Sequence record: MW882907
DNA from: Escherichia phage vB_EcoM_SQ17
Strand: one strand, 5' to 3'
Length of the DNA: 64,000 bases
Shown here: positions 4,108 to 16,704 of the stretch, piece after piece
Layout: each line of letters opens with the position of its first letter
How positions within the stretch are numbered: the first letter of the stretch is position 1
Position numbers and translations under genes: made by a program
The notes under the pieces: generated by a model
Told to the model about the DNA's origin: nothing
Databases searched by the model: none
Seen by the model: the letters and a program-made list of their open reading frames with translations, nothing else

Positions 4108-4524
4108 TTATGCAGCAACCATCTGCTTTTTAATAGCTTCAGGCAGTGATTCAATATATTCTGGAATTTTAGAAGCAACAATTTCACCAGCTGCAATTAG
4201 TTGTTCGTCGGCATCAACACAGTAGAAATCTTCCAGACGCTCAGAACCATCTTTATCAAGAACGATTTTTCCGCCAGCTTCAATAGAATCTTTATAGTGC
4301 TTACGCATCAGATGAATCCACATATCAGATACATCGTTATCAATAAAACCATAAATCATAAAACGAGTTTCTTGTGGCAAAGATTGGAGTTTTTTGGCAC
4401 TTGCGTCATCACAATGCAGGACCCATGCTTTACGAACACGATTATGGTTATGTGGGTTAGCGTCAGTACGGATAGAAGTAACTTTCAGATCAGCAGCAGT
4501 GAAACCTTTAGCAGTAGTAAACAT
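4108..4524 (-). CDS. rpbA: RNA polymerase binding protein RpbA-like
   Basis: 138-aa ORF in the T4 rpbA position between 45.2 and 45; assignment by synteny and size only. Confidence 0.5.
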   Translation of the reverse strand: MFTTAKGFTAADLKVTSIRTDANPHNHNRVRKAWVLHCDDASAKKLQSLPQETRFMIYGFIDNDVSDMWIHLMRKHYKDSIEAGGKIVLDKDGSERLEDFYCVDADEQLIAAGEIVASKIPEYIESLPEAIKKQMVAA

Positions 4525-4536
4525 ATTATTTCTCTC

Positions 4537-4737
4537 TTATTCGTAGAAGTCGGTAACTGTCCATGCGGAATTGCGATTAGACATTATTTTATTATACTCA
4601 TCTTTAAAAGCAGATTTGAGCATTTGTTCAGTAACAATATGTTCTTCACCTGAAAACGTATTGGTCAAAACATATTTTTTAATTTCAGGGACAACGAGAA
4701 GATGTTGTCCGGTTGAATACTCCATGTTGTTCTCCAT
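4537..4737 (-). CDS. hypothetical protein (45.2-like small ORF)
   Basis: 66-aa ORF, ATG start, between gene 46 and rpbA. Confidence 0.45.
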   Translation of the reverse strand: MENNMEYSTGQHLLVVPEIKKYVLTNTFSGEEHIVTEQMLKSAFKDEYNKIMSNRNSAWTVTDFYE

Positions 4738-4779: not shown

Positions 4780-6468
4780 TTATGAAACAGTCATTACAGT
4801 AAATCGTCCAACTTTGCTCATTTGAAGATGTTGTCCATAAGCTTGTGGGTCATGGTCTCTGTGACTAATTATAAACACGTTTGCATCGGTTAGAGAGTTA
4901 AGAATTGTTGAAATAGCTTTAATACCTTCAGAATCAGTCGCGGAATCCATGACTTCGTCCATAATTAATGTATTGATTCTAACACCAGAGACCTTTTCAG
5001 CAATATCTCGCCATGTAAACAACAATGCGATATCGATACGCGCTTTTTCGCCTTGACTAAATGAAGCATAACTGAACTCTTCACGGCCACGTGATTTTAT
5101 AGATTCATTGAATTCTTCATCAATAGAAAACACGTAATCAGCTTCCATGATTTTAAGATAATGGTTAATCTGCTTGTTGAACAGAGGCACATATTTTTTA
5201 ATGATAGCACCTTTAATACCAGAATCTTTTAACATATCTGTGATAATACCACGATGGTATTTTTCAAGAACGATATCAGATTTTGTTTTAATGATTTTAT
5301 CAAGTTCTTTTTGAAGCAAAGCTATCTCATCGGCATGGTCGATAAATTCCGCTGAGGCTTGTTCTATTGCAGCTTTAACTTTCTTAGCTTTATCAATAGT
5401 GGCAATCATTGCTTGTTTCTTGGTACGAATATCAGATGCAAGGTCCTGTTTAGTCTTAACATTAGCTCTATATTCGTCCACTAGGACACTCAGATTATCT
5501 CTGTGACATGTAAGTTGCTCGAATGAGTGATTACATTCGTGAAGCTTATCGGTAATCTTAGAGACAATAGGATCACCCTGGTGCAACTGTGATGCACAAG
5601 TAGGACATGTGCCACCGTCATGATACATCTTAATAACTTTGTTATATGAGTCGATTTTAGATTTAATCAAGAATGCTTCTTGTCCGATCTTGTTGAATGC
5701 CTCAGTAGGGTCTTCATCAAGAACGATATTAAGTAGACGCTCGTTAGCTTCTTCGATTTCTGCTTTTAATGAACGAGCTTCTTTGGCTAGGTCGTCATAC
5801 ATATTCTGTAGACGCGCTACATTATCACCAGATAATTTCTTTTGACGTTCGATATTCTCGTTATAAATCTTAATTTGTTGGATAATACCATCTTTCTTGG
5901 CGTCGAGAACTTGTCCCTGGGAATTAAGTTCTCGAACTTGAGACTTATTGATTTTATCCATTTCAGCGAGTGTGCCGACTTCTAAAAGGTCTTCGACAAG
6001 TTTTCTACGAGCAGGGGTGCTAAGAGCCATGAAAGGGGTATACCCTGCCGTCCCAAGCACAACGATTTGTTTAAAAGACGCGTATGACATTCCGATGCTA
6101 CGTTCAAATTCTTCTTGGAAGTCACGACTGCTGGCAGATTCATCGAGACGAACACCGTCAACGGAGATTTCGAAAATATTGGGCTTTTGGCCACGTTTAA
6201 TGAAGTATTTTTTACCATCGAATTCCATCCAAAGCTCAACTAAGAGCTCTTTCTTGTTCGTGCTATTAATGATTTGCCCTTTCTTAACATCACGAAATGG
6301 TTTACCGAAAAGTCCGAAAGTAATGGCTTCTAACATCGTAGATTTACCACCACCATTTTTACCTGTGATTAAGGTCTTTTGGACTTTATCTAATTGGATA
6401 TCGATAAAATTTTGCCCAACAGACATTATATTTTTATAACGAACACGATTTAATTTAAATGTTTTCAC
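4780..6468 (-). CDS. 46: recombination endonuclease subunit gp46 (Rad50/SbcC-like ATPase)
   Basis: 562-aa ORF; N-terminal Walker A GKNGGGKST, long coiled-coil middle, C-terminal signature and Walker B LIMDEVMDS; start codon appears to be GTG. Confidence 0.9.
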   Translation of the reverse strand: MKTFKLNRVRYKNIMSVGQNFIDIQLDKVQKTLITGKNGGGKSTMLEAITFGLFGKPFRDVKKGQIINSTNKKELLVELWMEFDGKKYFIKRGQKPNIFEISVDGVRLDESASSRDFQEEFERSIGMSYASFKQIVVLGTAGYTPFMALSTPARRKLVEDLLEVGTLAEMDKINKSQVRELNSQGQVLDAKKDGIIQQIKIYNENIERQKKLSGDNVARLQNMYDDLAKEARSLKAEIEEANERLLNIVLDEDPTEAFNKIGQEAFLIKSKIDSYNKVIKMYHDGGTCPTCASQLHQGDPIVSKITDKLHECNHSFEQLTCHRDNLSVLVDEYRANVKTKQDLASDIRTKKQAMIATIDKAKKVKAAIEQASAEFIDHADEIALLQKELDKIIKTKSDIVLEKYHRGIITDMLKDSGIKGAIIKKYVPLFNKQINHYLKIMEADYVFSIDEEFNESIKSRGREEFSYASFSQGEKARIDIALLFTWRDIAEKVSGVRINTLIMDEVMDSATDSEGIKAISTILNSLTDANVFIISHRDHDPQAYGQHLQMSKVGRFTVMTVS

Positions 6469-7315
6469 TTAAATTTTTCCTCATGAATTCAGAAACTAAA
6501 GCCTGTAAAGAACTTTGTATAGGATATCCTAAATTGACTAAATTTTTAGAAAAAGTCACATATTTAGGTTTGTTCATTTTAACCCATTCAACGTAAAGCA
6601 TATCAAAATTTTCCCAATGATATCCTTTTCTTCTAGATTTCAAATGAGTGTCTCTAACTTTAGGATTTTTCCAACTGCGTGAAACTCCAGCCGATAATGA
6701 TTCTCTATATTCGGCTGTTTTAGATATTTTACGACAAGCATCCAAATGTTTTTGTTTATTAATAGGGTCACTAAACCACTTTTGGGTCATAATAGAGACG
6801 GTTTCTTTAAATTCCTTTGAACTTGTCATAATTCTGTGTTTCTTTAAATTTTCCGGATTTTTAAACCATGCTTTTAAAGCTTGACTAATCTTAATTCTAT
6901 TATCCTGATTGGAATAGTATAATGTCATTTTTATAGAATTAACTTTACAAACATTTTCGAATTCTAAAGAATACACCTCGGCTATATTATTTAGTTCATG
7001 CGTTGTACAATTTAAATTAAATCGCCCGGTATACATTCTTTGAAGCGCGTTAATCATCTTGTGGTTGCCAGTTTTTGCCAAAATGCTATGTGCAATAAAA
7101 TGGTTATAATGACTTAAATGACACAAGTTCCATTTACATGTTTTAAAATCTGGAAAAATAGATTTTGGTAGTATATGGTGAACCTGAGTCAGTCCTTTTA
7201 CTTTATTAGTGGAATTAGTTTTTATAAAGTTTAAATACTCATCAAGTCCTTCCCACGAAGGGAAGGAGGTTTTAAGAATTTTATAAATTTGAGTTTCATA
7301 ATCAGTCTTCGTCAT
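6455..7315 (-). CDS. free-standing HNH homing endonuclease-like protein with NUMOD3-type repeats
   Basis: ATG at 7315; motif VHHILPKS...NLCHLSHYNHFIAH (His-His...Asn...His); three C-terminal repeats of W(F/K)(K/S)(N/D)P...(K/T)H; sits between 46 and 47. Confidence 0.6.
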   Translation of the reverse strand: MTKTDYETQIYKILKTSFPSWEGLDEYLNFIKTNSTNKVKGLTQVHHILPKSIFPDFKTCKWNLCHLSHYNHFIAHSILAKTGNHKMINALQRMYTGRFNLNCTTHELNNIAEVYSLEFENVCKVNSIKMTLYYSNQDNRIKISQALKAWFKNPENLKKHRIMTSSKEFKETVSIMTQKWFSDPINKQKHLDACRKISKTAEYRESLSAGVSRSWKNPKVRDTHLKSRRKGYHWENFDMLYVEWVKMNKPKYVTFSKNLVNLGYPIQSSLQALVSEFMRKNLSENI

Positions 7316-7559
7316 TATACGCGTCCTCAATACATGCTTCAGCCATTTTAAGAATAGAGCCAGGAGTATCGTTGTCCATTATATTAAAGCTAAATTCAAT
7401 AGCCCAGTCGGTGCAGACATGAACTGCTTTAACTTCATTGCCTTCAACGCGTAATGGCTCAATCCAATACTTGATAGTGTTCTCGAATCCATCATCGTCT
7501 TTAACGTCCATTTCAACTTCAAGTCGAAGCCCAGCATTATTAAATTCATCTAAAGTCAT
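7302..7559 (-). CDS. hypothetical acidic protein
   Basis: 85-aa ORF, ATG start overlapping gene 47 stop (ATGA); acidic composition. Confidence 0.5.
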   Translation of the reverse strand: MTLDEFNNAGLRLEVEMDVKDDDGFENTIKYWIEPLRVEGNEVKAVHVCTDWAIEFSFNIMDNDTPGSILKMAEACIEDAYNDED

Positions 7560-8575
7560 TGTGTTGCCTCAATATAAAGTTCGTTGGAATATTTGACCAG
7601 CGCTTCTCTGTCTTCGTCTGAGATATCTGGAATCGCGTCAATATATTCTTTAATGATATCTTGAAGTGATTTAATCTCGATTTCCTGGTCGTCATCAGAT
7701 TCAACACTGTTATCAACTTTAGAAACCATACGAAGAGAGTGAACTACTTTTTCAAGTTCGGATTCAAACTTAGTCAACTCTAAATCAATTTCTGATACTA
7801 TAACACGTAAGGCTAGATTAGTATAATCAGAATAATTGATTTTGCCTTTAAACGGATAAGTGATTCGTCGATGCCATGTTGTTTCATTAGGAATAAATTC
7901 CATACGTTCAACATCAGTGTCAAATACCCAGAATCCGCGTGGGTCGTTTTCATCACCTGCAGTAAGGGTCCATGGTGTCCCAATATATTTAACGTTAGCA
8001 GCTTCAGAGATTGTGTGGAAGTGGCCGGACCAGACTTGTTTATAGGTCTTTAAGAAATCAGGTTCAAGCCCATGAGACTTCATTCCTTTATAGAAATAAA
8101 AACCATTCAGTTCCCAGTGCCCAACACAATACGCTGCGGAAGAAGTCTTGATGTGCTCTAAGATTTCACCTGTATTTTCTTCGCACATCCATGGAACGAT
8201 ATCAATCAGACATCCGTCAAAATCTACGGTAGTTGGATGCTCGTAAATAGTAAAGTTTTCAAATTGAGTTAACAATTCAGAAACAGTGTTAGGTGTTATT
8301 GTATTCTTAAACGCCATGTCATGGTTTCCTATCGTGACATGAACGTGAATGCCTGCTTTAGAAATCATATCAACGATTTCACGATTGAATTCCATTGTAC
8401 GATGTGTTATTGCTTTACGGACGTCAAACCAATCACCGTACTGAATCCAAGTTTTAATCCCGTGTTTCTTAGAGTATTCAATTGCTTGACGAATACCATC
8501 ACGTTGAATATCTTGAACCCATGGGTCATCTTGTTTGACTCCGATATGGAAGTCGCCTAAGTGCAAAATTTTCAT
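7556..8575 (-). CDS. 47: recombination endonuclease subunit gp47 (Mre11/SbcD-like phosphoesterase)
   Basis: 339-aa ORF starting MKILHLGDFHIG; calcineurin-like phosphoesterase motifs (GDxH, GNHD, GHxH). Confidence 0.9.
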   Translation of the reverse strand: MKILHLGDFHIGVKQDDPWVQDIQRDGIRQAIEYSKKHGIKTWIQYGDWFDVRKAITHRTMEFNREIVDMISKAGIHVHVTIGNHDMAFKNTITPNTVSELLTQFENFTIYEHPTTVDFDGCLIDIVPWMCEENTGEILEHIKTSSAAYCVGHWELNGFYFYKGMKSHGLEPDFLKTYKQVWSGHFHTISEAANVKYIGTPWTLTAGDENDPRGFWVFDTDVERMEFIPNETTWHRRITYPFKGKINYSDYTNLALRVIVSEIDLELTKFESELEKVVHSLRMVSKVDNSVESDDDQEIEIKSLQDIIKEYIDAIPDISDEDREALVKYSNELYIEATQ

Positions 8576-8620
8576 ATTATTTCCTCATTAGTTAATTCAT
8601 TCTATCATCCGTTTATAAAG

Positions 8621-8646
8621 CAAAAAAAGGAACTCCGAAGAGTTCC
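8621..8646 (-). terminator. rho-independent terminator
   Basis: On minus strand GGAACTC-TTCG-GAGTTCC followed by TTTTTTTG; just upstream (in transcript terms) of gene 47. Confidence 0.5.
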
Positions 8647-13374: not shown

Positions 13375-13845
13375 TTAATCATGTTTCCACACCCCATCGG
13401 TATTTGACCAAAGTCGCTGATTATCTGATCCTCGCCACAGCTTTTTAGTCGGAAGATTTTTCTCATACTTCCCATCAATAATAACATCAACATATTTAAG
13501 CATTTCTAGTTGTTTAATATCTTCAAACTTATATCCTGTCCACAACCAAATGCTTTTATTAGGATAAAGATTTTTTACTGTTTGAACGATGCAATGAACA
13601 ACATCTCGGTTATCAGGATAGAGAGGGTCACCTCCGGTTATAGTCAATCCTTCTATATAATCATTATTCAAGCATTCAATTAATTGTTCTAGTGTCTCTC
13701 CAGTGAATGGAATGCCATTTCTAGCATTCCATGTTGATTTATTATAACACCCTTCGCATTTATGCAAACAACCTGTAACGAAAAGAACGACCCTGCATCC
13801 AGGGCCATTCACAAAATCGCAAGGATAAAATCTATCATAATTCAT
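13375..13845 (-). CDS. nrdG: anaerobic ribonucleotide reductase activating protein NrdG (radical SAM)
   Basis: 156-aa ORF with CLHKCEGC radical-SAM cysteine cluster; ATGA overlap with nrdD stop. Confidence 0.9.
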   Translation of the reverse strand: MNYDRFYPCDFVNGPGCRVVLFVTGCLHKCEGCYNKSTWNARNGIPFTGETLEQLIECLNNDYIEGLTITGGDPLYPDNRDVVHCIVQTVKNLYPNKSIWLWTGYKFEDIKQLEMLKYVDVIIDGKYEKNLPTKKLWRGSDNQRLWSNTDGVWKHD

Positions 13846-16704
13846 TGGTGTTTAACCCTATGCATGATTTCTTTATTTTTACCGAGATTAAATCCGCGTT
13901 CGTTCGGATTTCCCAAATAACCGCATGTTCTTCTTATAGTATTCATCTTTTTAGGATCACTTTCTCCACAAACTGAACAAACAAATCCGTTTTCAGTAGG
14001 AGTCATTTCATGGGTACTTCCACATGTAAAACATTTATCTACTGGCATATTAACACCAAAATAATCTAAATGTTGTGCAGCATAATCCCACACGGCCTCA
14101 AGACCTTTTAGGTTATTTTTCATATCAGGAAGTTCAACATAAGAAATGTGACCGCCTGTCGCAATGAAATGATATGGGGCTTCGCGAGAAATCTTTTCAA
14201 ACGGAGTAATATTTTCTTCTACTGAAACATGGAAACTATTAGTGTACCAGCCTTTATCAGTAACATCTTTTACACTTCCATATTTTTCGGTATCAAGTTT
14301 ACAGAAGCGATAGCACAGGTTTTCAGCAGGAGTAGAATACAAACTAAAAGCGAATCCGGTTCTTTCAGTCCATTGTTTAAGATGAATATTCATTTTAGTT
14401 AAAATTTCTTGTCCAATATCACGACCGACAAGAATATTCAATTCGTGAATACCAATGTATCCCAAAGACACTGAACTTCTACCGTTTTTAAATAACTCAA
14501 TTATATCGTCATCAGGTTTAAGACGAACACCGAATGCACCTTCTTGGTAAAGAATAGGAGCAACAGTAGCTTTAACACCCTTTAAAGAACTAATTCTGCA
14601 CATCAATGCTTCAAAACACAGATCCATTCGTTCATTGAATAATTCAACAAATTTCTGTTCATTGAATTGTGTTCCAATATAAGAATCTAACGCAATACGA
14701 GGAAGATTCAGTGTTACAACACCAAGATTATTACGTCCATCAAGAATTTCATTACCAGTCGAATCTTTCCATACACTCAAGAAACTACGGCAACCCATTG
14801 GAGAAACAGGAACAGATGAACCAGTGATAGCTTTATTATTCTTAACTGAAATAATATCAGGATACATTCTTTTGCTTGCACACTCTAGAGCAAGCTGCTT
14901 AATATCGTAGTTCGGGTCGTCTTTATAAAGATTGACACCCTCTTCAACGAACATAACAAGTTTAGGGAAAATAGGAGATATCCCATTGCGACCAAGACCT
15001 TTAATACGATTTTTCAGAATTGCTTTTTGAATCATTCGTTCAGTCCAGTCAGTTCCCGTACCAAATGTAATTGTTACAAAAGGCGTTTGTCCATTAGAGC
15101 TGAAAAGTGTATTTACTTCATCATTATATTCAGCATGAGTCGCAAATTCATGCCCGTTTATATGAAACAACAAAATTTGGATAGTCCATAGATATGCAAC
15201 GTTCTTTTATAGTGCTAGGATGAAAATTTAGCGCTTTAGCTGCTTCTATATAAGACGTATACTTAATACCGTCAACAACCACATATTCAGGAACTTTATG
15301 AATAGTAGTCTTAATACTCAAAACAAGAGGATGAGTTTCGACTTCACTTTCAGTGCAATTTAAATATTCCGCTGCTTTTTTAAAACTTCTAAAAGTTTTA
15401 TTTTTAAGCTTTATCGATACTTGTTTTTTACTTTTTCGACTATTGATATTATTTTGCACATGTTCCTTAGATCTTCCGTTTTTAGCATAATATTCAGCTA
15501 CAGAAGATTTTATATTGTTTTTATGAGATTCGGATAACACTTTACCCTTATGAGCATCTCTTAATTTTTGAATATGTTCTTCAGTATCCGGATGCTTATA
15601 AAACTTTTTACCGCCTATGGATTTATTTAAACACTTTTTGCTATAAAAATATTTACGTATGACCTCTTCTTCATGTTTTAATGCATCTTTATAACTATCA
15701 AATGTTTTTAAAATTATCCATTTAGTAGGTGTATCAGTTTTTAAGCGTTCATTTATATACTTAGATGACGTTGTGTAAGTTTTCCAGTTTGTGGGCTTGT
15801 TTTTAATTGTTCTAAATTTTTTATAACCGATATAAATGTCACCATTAGAAAACTTAACTAAGTATGTAAATGCGTCTTTATCTTTTATTTTAGTACAACG
15901 TCTTTTTATCCATTTCATTGTTTCACCTCGTATTCATAAGATAATCTTATTTATACAAGATGACTGCTGCATGTCGCCATGCAGATTAGACTATATCTTC
16001 ATCTTTCGATGCCGGCCGTTTCGAATAGCATTAGCTTCTATTCTACACCGCTACATTCATCACGGTTAGTCGTTAGGCATTTAGTTCAAAAGAACATTTA
16101 GCACGGGATTGTCTACTAGAGAGGTTCCCCGTTTAGACCGGTTTTACATGAGCCTGAATTAAATTAACTCATACGCCTGGAATGCATCGTATACGTCTTT
16201 TTCTGTTTTAGATTGGGCGTAATTCAACGCATCAGCGATTTGCCATTTTTCTGCATCTTCAACATGTTTAGCGTATGTGCGTTTAACATAAGGAGAAAGT
16301 ACTTTATCTACATTAGCAAATGTAGTTCCGCCGTACTGGTGTGAAGCAACTTGTGCAGTAATTTGTGCCATAATTGCAGTAGCAACACCAATCGATTTAG
16401 GCGTTTCAATTTGAGCATTACCTAGCTTAAATCCGTTTTCAAGCATTCCTTTTAAATCTACTAAACAACAATTAGTAAATGGAAGAGCAGGGGAATAATC
16501 AATATCATGGAAATGGATAATTCCACTTTCATGTGCTTTCATAATAAAAGACGGGACCATATTTTTGGCAATGTGCTTAGACACAATACCAGCCATAAGG
16601 TCCCGTTGAGTTGGAAAAACACGAGAATCTTTATTAGCATTCTCGTTCAAAAGATCTTTATTAGTTTTATGAATTAATCCTTCAATTTCTTTTTCAATTT
16701 TCAT
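13842..16704 (-). CDS. nrdD: anaerobic ribonucleoside-triphosphate reductase NrdD, interrupted by a group I intron
   Basis: Exon 1 about 16165..16704 (MKIEKEIEGLIHK...), exon 2 about 13842..15110 ending with glycyl-radical motif RRTCGYLG; the two reading frames are separated by an intron with its own ORF. Confidence 0.8.
15110..16164 (-). mobile_element. group I intron in nrdD carrying a homing endonuclease ORF (boundaries approximate)
   Basis: Non-coding GC-richer 5' core 15919..16164 contains GAAGATATAGTC (S-element-like) and AACGACUAA; ORF occupies the 3' part as in the T4 nrdD (sunY) intron. Confidence 0.6.
15148..15918 (-). CDS. intron-encoded GIY-YIG homing endonuclease (I-TevII-like)
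   Basis: 256-aa ORF, ATG start, N-terminal GIY-YIG-type motif ...FSNGDIYIGYKKF...; basic C-terminal DNA-binding region. Confidence 0.8.
   Translation of the reverse strand: MKWIKRRCTKIKDKDAFTYLVKFSNGDIYIGYKKFRTIKNKPTNWKTYTTSSKYINERLKTDTPTKWIILKTFDSYKDALKHEEEVIRKYFYSKKCLNKSIGGKKFYKHPDTEEHIQKLRDAHKGKVLSESHKNNIKSSVAEYYAKNGRSKEHVQNNINSRKSKKQVSIKLKNKTFRSFKKAAEYLNCTESEVETHPLVLSIKTTIHKVPEYVVVDGIKYTSYIEAAKALNFHPSTIKERCISMDYPNFVVSYKRA

Follow-up and report, generated by a model that had tools for sequence, protein, structure and literature searches.

A probable MobD-like homing endonuclease gene in place of gene 46.1, beside recombination gene 46 of a T4-like Escherichia phage

The DNA considered here is a 64,000-nucleotide stretch of Escherichia phage vB_EcoM_SQ17 (record MW882907), referred to below as the window, which comes from a T4-like Mosigvirus. 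Its region of recombination genes 47 and 46 contains an additional open reading frame (ORF) that probably encodes a free-standing HNH homing endonuclease, and all genes around this ORF lie on the minus strand. Gene 47 (7556..8575, minus strand), the first gene of the operon, encodes a metallophosphoesterase, the Mre11/SbcD-like subunit, and it is followed by the 85-aa gene 46.2 (7302..7559, minus strand; Pfam T4_Y03C, 5.6e-44), which is the upstream neighbour of the endonuclease ORF (6455..7315, minus strand). Next comes gene 46 (4780..6468, minus strand), which encodes the Rad50/SbcC-like recombination nuclease subunit (AAA_23, SMC_N) and is the probable target gene. A preliminary description of the locus, made by eye, had placed the ORF between genes 46 and 47; this holds for the 47-46 region as a whole, but the precise place is between genes 46.2 and 46, at the position of gene 46.1.

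Counted from the ATG at 7315, the ORF encodes 286 aa, as that description had it, with a GAGGA Shine–Dalgarno sequence at 7328-7324 and the ATG 8 nt downstream; the ORF listing also gives an extended form of 291 aa from a TTG start at 7330 (6455..7330, minus strand). The overlaps noticed by eye at both ends of the ORF are real and measure 14 nt each, the 3′ end covering the GTG start of gene 46 (6455-6468) and the 5′ end the stop of gene 46.2 (7302-7315). The greater AT-richness was confirmed as well: GC content is 30.1% in the endonuclease segment, compared with 37.4% in gene 46, 39.1% in gene 46.2, 38.0% in gene 47 and 37.0% in the whole window, and the segment falls into the lowest 0.7% of 825-bp windows across the 64 kb.

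A megablast search with the locus covered ∼154 Mosigvirus-level records, and the endonuclease ORF was present in nine of them, namely phiEC1, PNJ-9, G2469, pEK20, F2 (two records), AV112, AV113 and 172859UKE1. It is intact in all nine, with protein identity of 99.3-99.7%, and the other Mosigvirus records have a 79-aa gene 46.1 (DUF5487) in the same position. The comparison of related genomes proposed in the preliminary description thus revealed a polymorphic junction rather than a ubiquitous ORF, and a nuclease motif is present, as set out below.

In an alignment of the junction from seven HNH-positive and 11 HNH-less genomes, a foreign cassette (6469..7293; 825 bp, 30.1% GC) stands in place of the gene 46.1 interior. 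On the upstream side, the junction (7293/7294) lies past the Shine–Dalgarno sequence, the ATG and seven codons common to gene 46.1; this start region (7294..7328, minus strand; GAGGA, ATG and the first seven codons, MTKTDYE) was taken from gene 46.1 and is identical in HNH-less genomes. Judged by the alignment, the event is an in-frame replacement of the body of gene 46.1 with the old translation start kept, and no simple insertion. The downstream junction falls on the gene 46 start codon, an ATG in non-carriers; carriers have GTG there, and the cassette supplies this start together with a new GAGGA (6482-6478). Because gene 46 starts with GTG in carriers, it is called in the annotation of 172859UKE1 (L006:301-1947) from an internal ATG at codon 15, 14 residues short; gene 46 of T4 also starts with GTG.

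The HNH-like core claimed for the protein is found at residues 43-80 (7076..7189, minus strand), where a beta-beta-alpha-metal motif reads VHHILPKS...KWNLCHLSHYNHFIAH (residues 43-80: TQVHHILPKSIFPDFKTCKWNLCHLSHYNHFIAHSILA). The putative catalytic residues are H46/H47, N63 and H72/H76. In 70 homologues, H46 and H72 are invariant and H47, I48, L49, P50, N63, L67 and H76 are conserved in at least 90%, and the HH...N...H...H pattern is common to the T4 proteins MobB, MobC and MobD (HHIIP...NLVxLT...H..AH). Moreover, an AF2 model of residues 1-100 has a pLDDT of 88, with strands at 43-47 and 64-68 and a helix at 69-80, so that the N-terminal domain is confidently modelled as a beta-beta-alpha arrangement around the motif.

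Over residues 7-277, the protein matched PHROG 655, ‘homing endonuclease’, at 5.5e-31; it also matched PHROG 12434, ‘HNH endonuclease’, at 2.1e-12. In a sequence comparison made with MobB, MobC and MobD of T4, MobD was the closest T4 protein, with 29% identity over 241 aa (E 6e-19) and both the nuclease and the C-terminal region covered; similarity to MobB and MobC was confined to the motif. An exhaustive HMMER search returned 766 relatives at E ≤ 1e-3, compared with eight proteins from a word-indexed homologue search. Pfam matches among the 70 homologues were to NUMOD3 (20 proteins, best 3.2e-14), HNH (5), HNH_5 (3), HNH_4 (2) and the I-HmuI NUMOD-like family (4). The preliminary description had proposed a search with HNH and NUMOD profiles, and here the outcome was divided: the PHROG and MobD matches bear the assignment out, but Pfam HNH and NUMOD3 matches were obtained for homologues only and not for the protein directly. 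In GenBank, the gene and its homologues carry the labels ‘MobD-like homing endonuclease’, ‘HNH endonuclease’, ‘homing endonuclease’ and ‘mobD’.

C-terminal to the core, three helical repeats of ∼30 aa extend over residues 136-228 (6632..6910, minus strand); their sequences are YSNQDNRIKISQALKAWFKNPENLKKH at residue 134, TSSKEFKETVSIMTQKWFSDPINKQKH at residue 164 and KTAEYRESLSAGVSRSWKNPKVRDTH at residue 199, with a period of 30-35 aa. The three NUMOD3-like repeats seen earlier by eye are therefore present, and repeat 3 aligns with the NUMOD3 units of two homologues, P0043 (194-212) and P0071 (195-215). ‘NUMOD3-like’ is a fair label for these repeats on the basis of their sequence, membership of the family being putative, and they are presumed to be DNA-binding modules.

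The phages that carry the ORF are not monophyletic in either flank, and most of them have a non-carrier as their nearest neighbour; a single vertical acquisition was rejected on this ground. In PNJ-9, the gene 47 flank groups with JS09 and is ∼11% from the next-nearest relatives, which are non-carriers. Mean pairwise diversity among seven carriers is 0.24% in the cassette, 0.5% in gene 46 nt 1-110, 1.7% in the next 500 nt and 5.0% in the remainder of gene 46, and it is 3.3% in gene 46.2 and 5.0% in gene 47. Thus, cassette diversity is 10-20 times below that of the flanks, and the trough has a sharp edge upstream and a graded recovery into gene 46. The low diversity of the cassette points to recent spread, and the endonuclease gene is probably still mobile.

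Outside the cassette, carriers show fixed differences from ordinary non-carriers solely within gene 46 nt 1-62 (6407..6468, minus strand). They comprise GTG for ATG at 6468, a substitution at 6462 and a patch of 11 substitutions at 6435-6407, which corresponds to gene 46 codons 12-21 (nt 34-62). Carriers have an A-type allele, TATAAAAATATAATGTCTGTTGGGCAAAATTTT, and non-carriers a C-type allele, TATCAAAACATCATGTCGGTAGGTGGGAATCCT; the residue changes in gp46 at the linked sites are K12Q, Q19G, F21P and T3S. The patch was found in nine of nine HNH-positive records compared with five of ∼145 HNH-less ones (Fisher p = 2e-11, relatedness being ignored in this test). The first 62 nt of gene 46 in carriers are predicted to be a cleavage-resistant allele of the target.

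Homologues of the ORF adjoin gene 46 on its upstream side in every genus examined (Mosigvirus, Gelderlandvirus and Tequatrovirus), with 45-56% identity in the latter two. In Gelderlandvirus, four phages have a homologue and ∼7, including S16 and STML-198, do not; that of Salmonella phage Melville (56% identity) lies between genes 47 and 46. In Tequatrovirus, the homologue is present in 72 of ∼505 records, including T6, T2, RB51 and KIT03, in the last of which it is annotated ‘mobD’, and T4 is without it. The T6 homologue (45% identity) lies between genes 46.1 and 46, inserted after codon 3 of gene 46 (codon 3/4) and bracketed by a 9-nt repeat, TTTAAACTT; the endonuclease ORF takes over the old gene 46 start (GTGAAGAAT followed by TTTAAACTT), and gene 46 is restored by a new ATGAAATCA followed by TTTAAACTT.

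The start of gene 46 also differs between carriers and non-carriers in these two genera. Gelderlandvirus carriers diverge heavily from non-carriers up to gene 46 nt ∼63 and are near-identical to them from ATTGATATTCAA on, and the HNH-associated alleles of Mosigvirus and Gelderlandvirus make the same synonymous choices, AATATAATGTCTGTTGG, versus AACATYATGTCRGTRGG in HNH-less genomes. In Tequatrovirus, fixed differences between carriers and non-carriers were found at gene 46 nt 63-64 (three versus three genomes). The linked divergence ends at gene 46 nt ∼63/64 in all three genera. Among endonuclease-free Tequatroviruses, diversity of gene 46 nt 1-110 is 9.2%, compared with 2-4% further in. When the Tequatrovirus AR1 (L027:1648-1760) was compared with T4 and PD112, it was seen to have a C-type-like allele, TATCAAAATATAATGTCAGTAGGTGGAAATCCT, and both classes of gene 46 start allele therefore circulate across genera.

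These comparisons bear on where a real homing endonuclease at this locus would cut. An alternative to a target inside gene 46 is one within gene 46.1 or at its junction with gene 46, with carriers immune by deletion of the target and the A-type patch either co-converted or pre-existing. The cassette does remove nearly all of gene 46.1, the T6 insertion at gene 46 codon 3/4 with its TTTAAACTT repeats would break a site that spans the junction, and the A-type patch occurs without the endonuclease in five Mosigviruses and in T4. Of the two candidate targets, however, only the 5′ end of gene 46 is conserved in all three genera: gene 46.1 is kept in T6, is only 40 aa long in S16 and is missing from STML-198. 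Moreover, the diversity trough reaches into gene 46 and not into gene 46.2. We consider this alternative unlikely, and a target at the 5′ end of gene 46 is preferred.

The T2 copy raises the separate matter of whether such genes still act. In T2 record PV648363.1, the gene upstream of gene 46 consists of two ORFs, 1648-2262 and 2243-2500 (L025:1648-2500), with a matched region 2 bp short of that in T6. The copy thus seems to be frameshifted and decaying, or else the record may contain a sequencing error; a split gene is the decay stage expected of such elements. Since family members can decay in this way, and since curated HNH profiles miss the window protein, the ORF might be an inactive or decaying relic that does no cutting and persists by linkage and ordinary recombination. 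In the nine carrier records, however, the ORF is undisrupted throughout and the proteins are nearly identical, every residue of the catalytic motif is intact, and the cassette is far less diverse than its flanks. A relic is thus quite improbable, and an active homing endonuclease directed at gene 46 remains our reading of the locus.

As for expression, sigma-70-like promoter sites at the endonuclease gene are in no excess over chance and no TATAAATA late promoter motif is present, and a promoter or terminator of its own was rejected for the gene. Because it has no evident promoter of its own, the gene rides the 47-46.2-46 transcript, and its transcription presumably starts at the middle promoter that precedes gene 47 (8599-8624, minus strand; MotA box at 8624), where a terminator-like hairpin (8647-8628) also lies. 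The overlap with the stop of gene 46.2 suggests that translation of the two may be coupled. A strict MotA pattern ([AT][AT]TGCTT[TC]A-N11-13-TAnnnT) has four minus-strand matches in the 64 kb. One MotA-box match lies inside gene 46 (5294-5320, minus strand) and another inside the endonuclease ORF (6576..6602, minus strand; TATGCTTTA-N12-TAAAAT), ∼134 nt before gene 46 and conserved in position in the homologue from Melville; the latter could, as a weak candidate, be a middle promoter for gene 46. Two RNA-level candidates were rejected: a start-codon hairpin sequestering the ribosome-binding site (z = +1.48, no structure), and an intron or other RNA element (no Rfam match in 6200-7700 at E ≤ 1).

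Placement in the gp46/47 nuclease operon, with co-transcription, would also suit a domesticated HNH nuclease that benefits the phage, either against competing phages or host DNA or in concert with gp46/47, its distribution then being a matter of accessory-gene turnover. A recent report describes a beneficial role for one T-even homing endonuclease, SegB (PMC13096335). Against such a role, the strict site beside gene 46 in three genera, the linked target-like polymorphisms and the diversity trough are what homing predicts, and ∼94% of Mosigvirus records are without the gene. We therefore regard domestication as highly improbable and return to homing.

On these grounds, we think it likely that the ORF encodes a free-standing HNH homing endonuclease of the T4 mob kind and has no promoter of its own. 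It is nearest to MobD in sequence, would act in the manner of MobE and probably nicks gene 46 near its 5′ end. In the mechanism proposed from these sequence comparisons, the protein would bind DNA through its NUMOD3-like repeats and would nick or cut gene 46 near nt 30-65 (∼6404-6438) in co-infecting genomes of the C type. Recombinational repair from the endonuclease-bearing genome would then transfer both the cassette and the resistant A-type allele next to it, so that the start of gene 46 would be inherited with a bias (marker exclusion). The suggestion in the preliminary description that a homing endonuclease here could drive marker exclusion of the 46/47 genes is supported by the linked patch and by the diversity trough that decays into gene 46. 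Genomes of the A type that are without the gene would represent either an older polymorphism or repair resolved within the 30 identical nt between patch and cassette.

Several observations weigh against this reading, some of them concerning the protein and others the linked patch. Pfam and NCBIfam gave no HNH or NUMOD3 match for the window protein at E ≤ 1, and these scans returned sub-threshold noise only, e.g. GerD and DUF1543. Searches of PDB sequences, with the single protein and with the 70-sequence profile, gave nothing relevant. The best Foldseek matches in the PDB were indeed HNH domains (Cas8-HNH, GVE2 HNH, retron HNH) but were non-significant, with E of 0.6-1 and probability ≤ 0.38, and fold searches with the whole protein gave no information, since the helical repeats dominate; overall, no PDB chain matched the window protein significantly in sequence or fold. 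T4-like phages recombine heavily, and mosaic flanks alone are no proof of spread driven by an endonuclease. The A-type patch is found without the endonuclease in G2285, WFL6982, WFK, ESCO47 and PTE-Eco05, and in a similar form in T4, and it may be an older polymorphism rather than something brought by the element. Gene 46 codons 4-10, between the cassette and the patch, are ordinary Mosigvirus sequence, and the linked tract is therefore non-contiguous; on account of these codons and the five HNH-less phages, the patch was rejected as part of a contiguous foreign tract. Finally, the T6-type relative is associated with a difference at nt 63-64 alone, among three versus three genomes, and may have a different specificity.

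Extending the proposal to all three genera, we tentatively suggest, as a possibility somewhat short of being the likelier one, that the first ∼64 nt of gene 46 form a cross-genus homing hot spot for one diverged MobD-like family (Mosigvirus, Gelderlandvirus and Tequatrovirus, including T2 and T6) which travels with a resistant allele. The resistant gene 46 allele would then be of the ‘K..GQN’ type and the cleavable one of the ‘Q..GGNP’ type, and nt 63/64, where linkage ends in each genus, would be the position of the nick. Resistant genomes free of the endonuclease (T4 and the five Mosigviruses) would be footprints of attacks repaired without gain of the gene. The element would, moreover, target the gene for a Rad50-like enzyme that may itself process homing breaks, although gp46/gp47 are only ‘possibly’ involved according to a review of T4 mobile elements (PMC2988022).

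Other putative endonuclease genes lie near gene 46 in relatives and elsewhere in the window. In F2, G2469, G2285 and ESCO47, a gene annotated ‘homing endonuclease’ abuts the 3′ end of gene 46 on the opposite strand (L001:1-282, L014:1-304, L017:1-304 and L020:1-304, respectively), and polymorphic endonuclease sites therefore flank gene 46 on both sides in some Mosigviruses. A Pfam scan of 93 residues of this 3′-side endonuclease gave weak zinc-ribbon matches only. It is absent from the window, which has genes 45.2 (4537..4737, minus strand) and rpbA (4108..4524, minus strand) there instead. Another stretch of very low GC content, the second in the window (15148-15918, minus strand; 28.7-30% GC), contains a 256-aa ORF that matches a SegE-type GIY-YIG domain (7.4e-06) and NUMOD1 (1.8e-05), situated between two pieces of nrdD (anaerobic ribonucleotide reductase), 13842-15173 and 16159-16704. 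Rfam reported no group I intron in this region at the gathering threshold, and the ORF may be intron-encoded, like I-TevII of the T4 nrdD gene, or may be a free-standing seg gene by which nrdD is split.

Free-standing homing endonucleases are a main cause of marker exclusion and of mosaic genomes in T-even phages, and the gene 46 site offers a natural experiment in this respect, with three genera, one insertion site and many carriers and non-carriers. It also yields a specific target prediction, namely gene 46 nt ∼30-65 of the C-type allele. Wherever Mosigvirus or T2/T6-type phages are crossed or combined in cocktails, 5′ alleles of gene 46 would not be inherited neutrally.

Among known systems, the T4 mob genes are the nearest. 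The review of T4 mobile elements describes no such site at gene 46, T4 being without the gene, and we found no open-access paper on an endonuclease at this site; of the five T4 mob genes, MobA and MobE alone have been shown to nick their target (PMC2988022). MobD is of the same size class (259 versus 286 aa), and both genes are free-standing, oriented as their neighbours and overlap the upstream gene. They differ in site, nrdC.11/mobD.1 for MobD versus upstream of gene 46, and presumably in target, and the HNH loop of the window protein reads HHILPKSIFP...KWN where MobD has HHIIPxxxGGxDDxxN. The activity and target of MobD are listed as not determined (PMC2988022, Table 1), and MobD therefore provides no mechanistic precedent.

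Such a precedent is closer to hand in MobE, a promoter-less HNH gene between nrdA and nrdB that overlaps its upstream gene; in genomes without mobE, its product nicks the downstream nrdB at nt 122-126 in a strand-specific manner, the mobE genome itself being protected by a polymorphic stretch at nt 114-131, and flanking markers are co-converted (PMC2790892). The window ORF is likewise a promoter-less gene just upstream of its proposed target, the linked stretch here being gene 46 nt 34-62. The two differ in that MobE targets a ribonucleotide reductase gene, whereas the window element would target a Rad50-like gene.

A third system, I-HmuI of a Bacillus phage SPO1 intron, is alike in domain order, with an N-terminal HNH nickase domain followed by a string of small DNA-binding modules, but it is intron-encoded whereas the window ORF is free-standing. 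The locus does not have the hallmarks of the intron-encoded type (I-HmuI, I-TevIII): both flanking genes, which the ORF overlaps, are intact, and Rfam gave no group I intron. It does have those of T-even mob genes, with homology to a Mob protein beyond the motif, the same orientation between conserved genes and sporadic presence at a fixed site; the co-conversion and target polymorphism typical of that group have their comparative counterparts here in the linked patch, the diversity trough and the common boundary in two other genera. The probable endonuclease is of a well-known type, ordinary for such phages, rather than a new kind of system.

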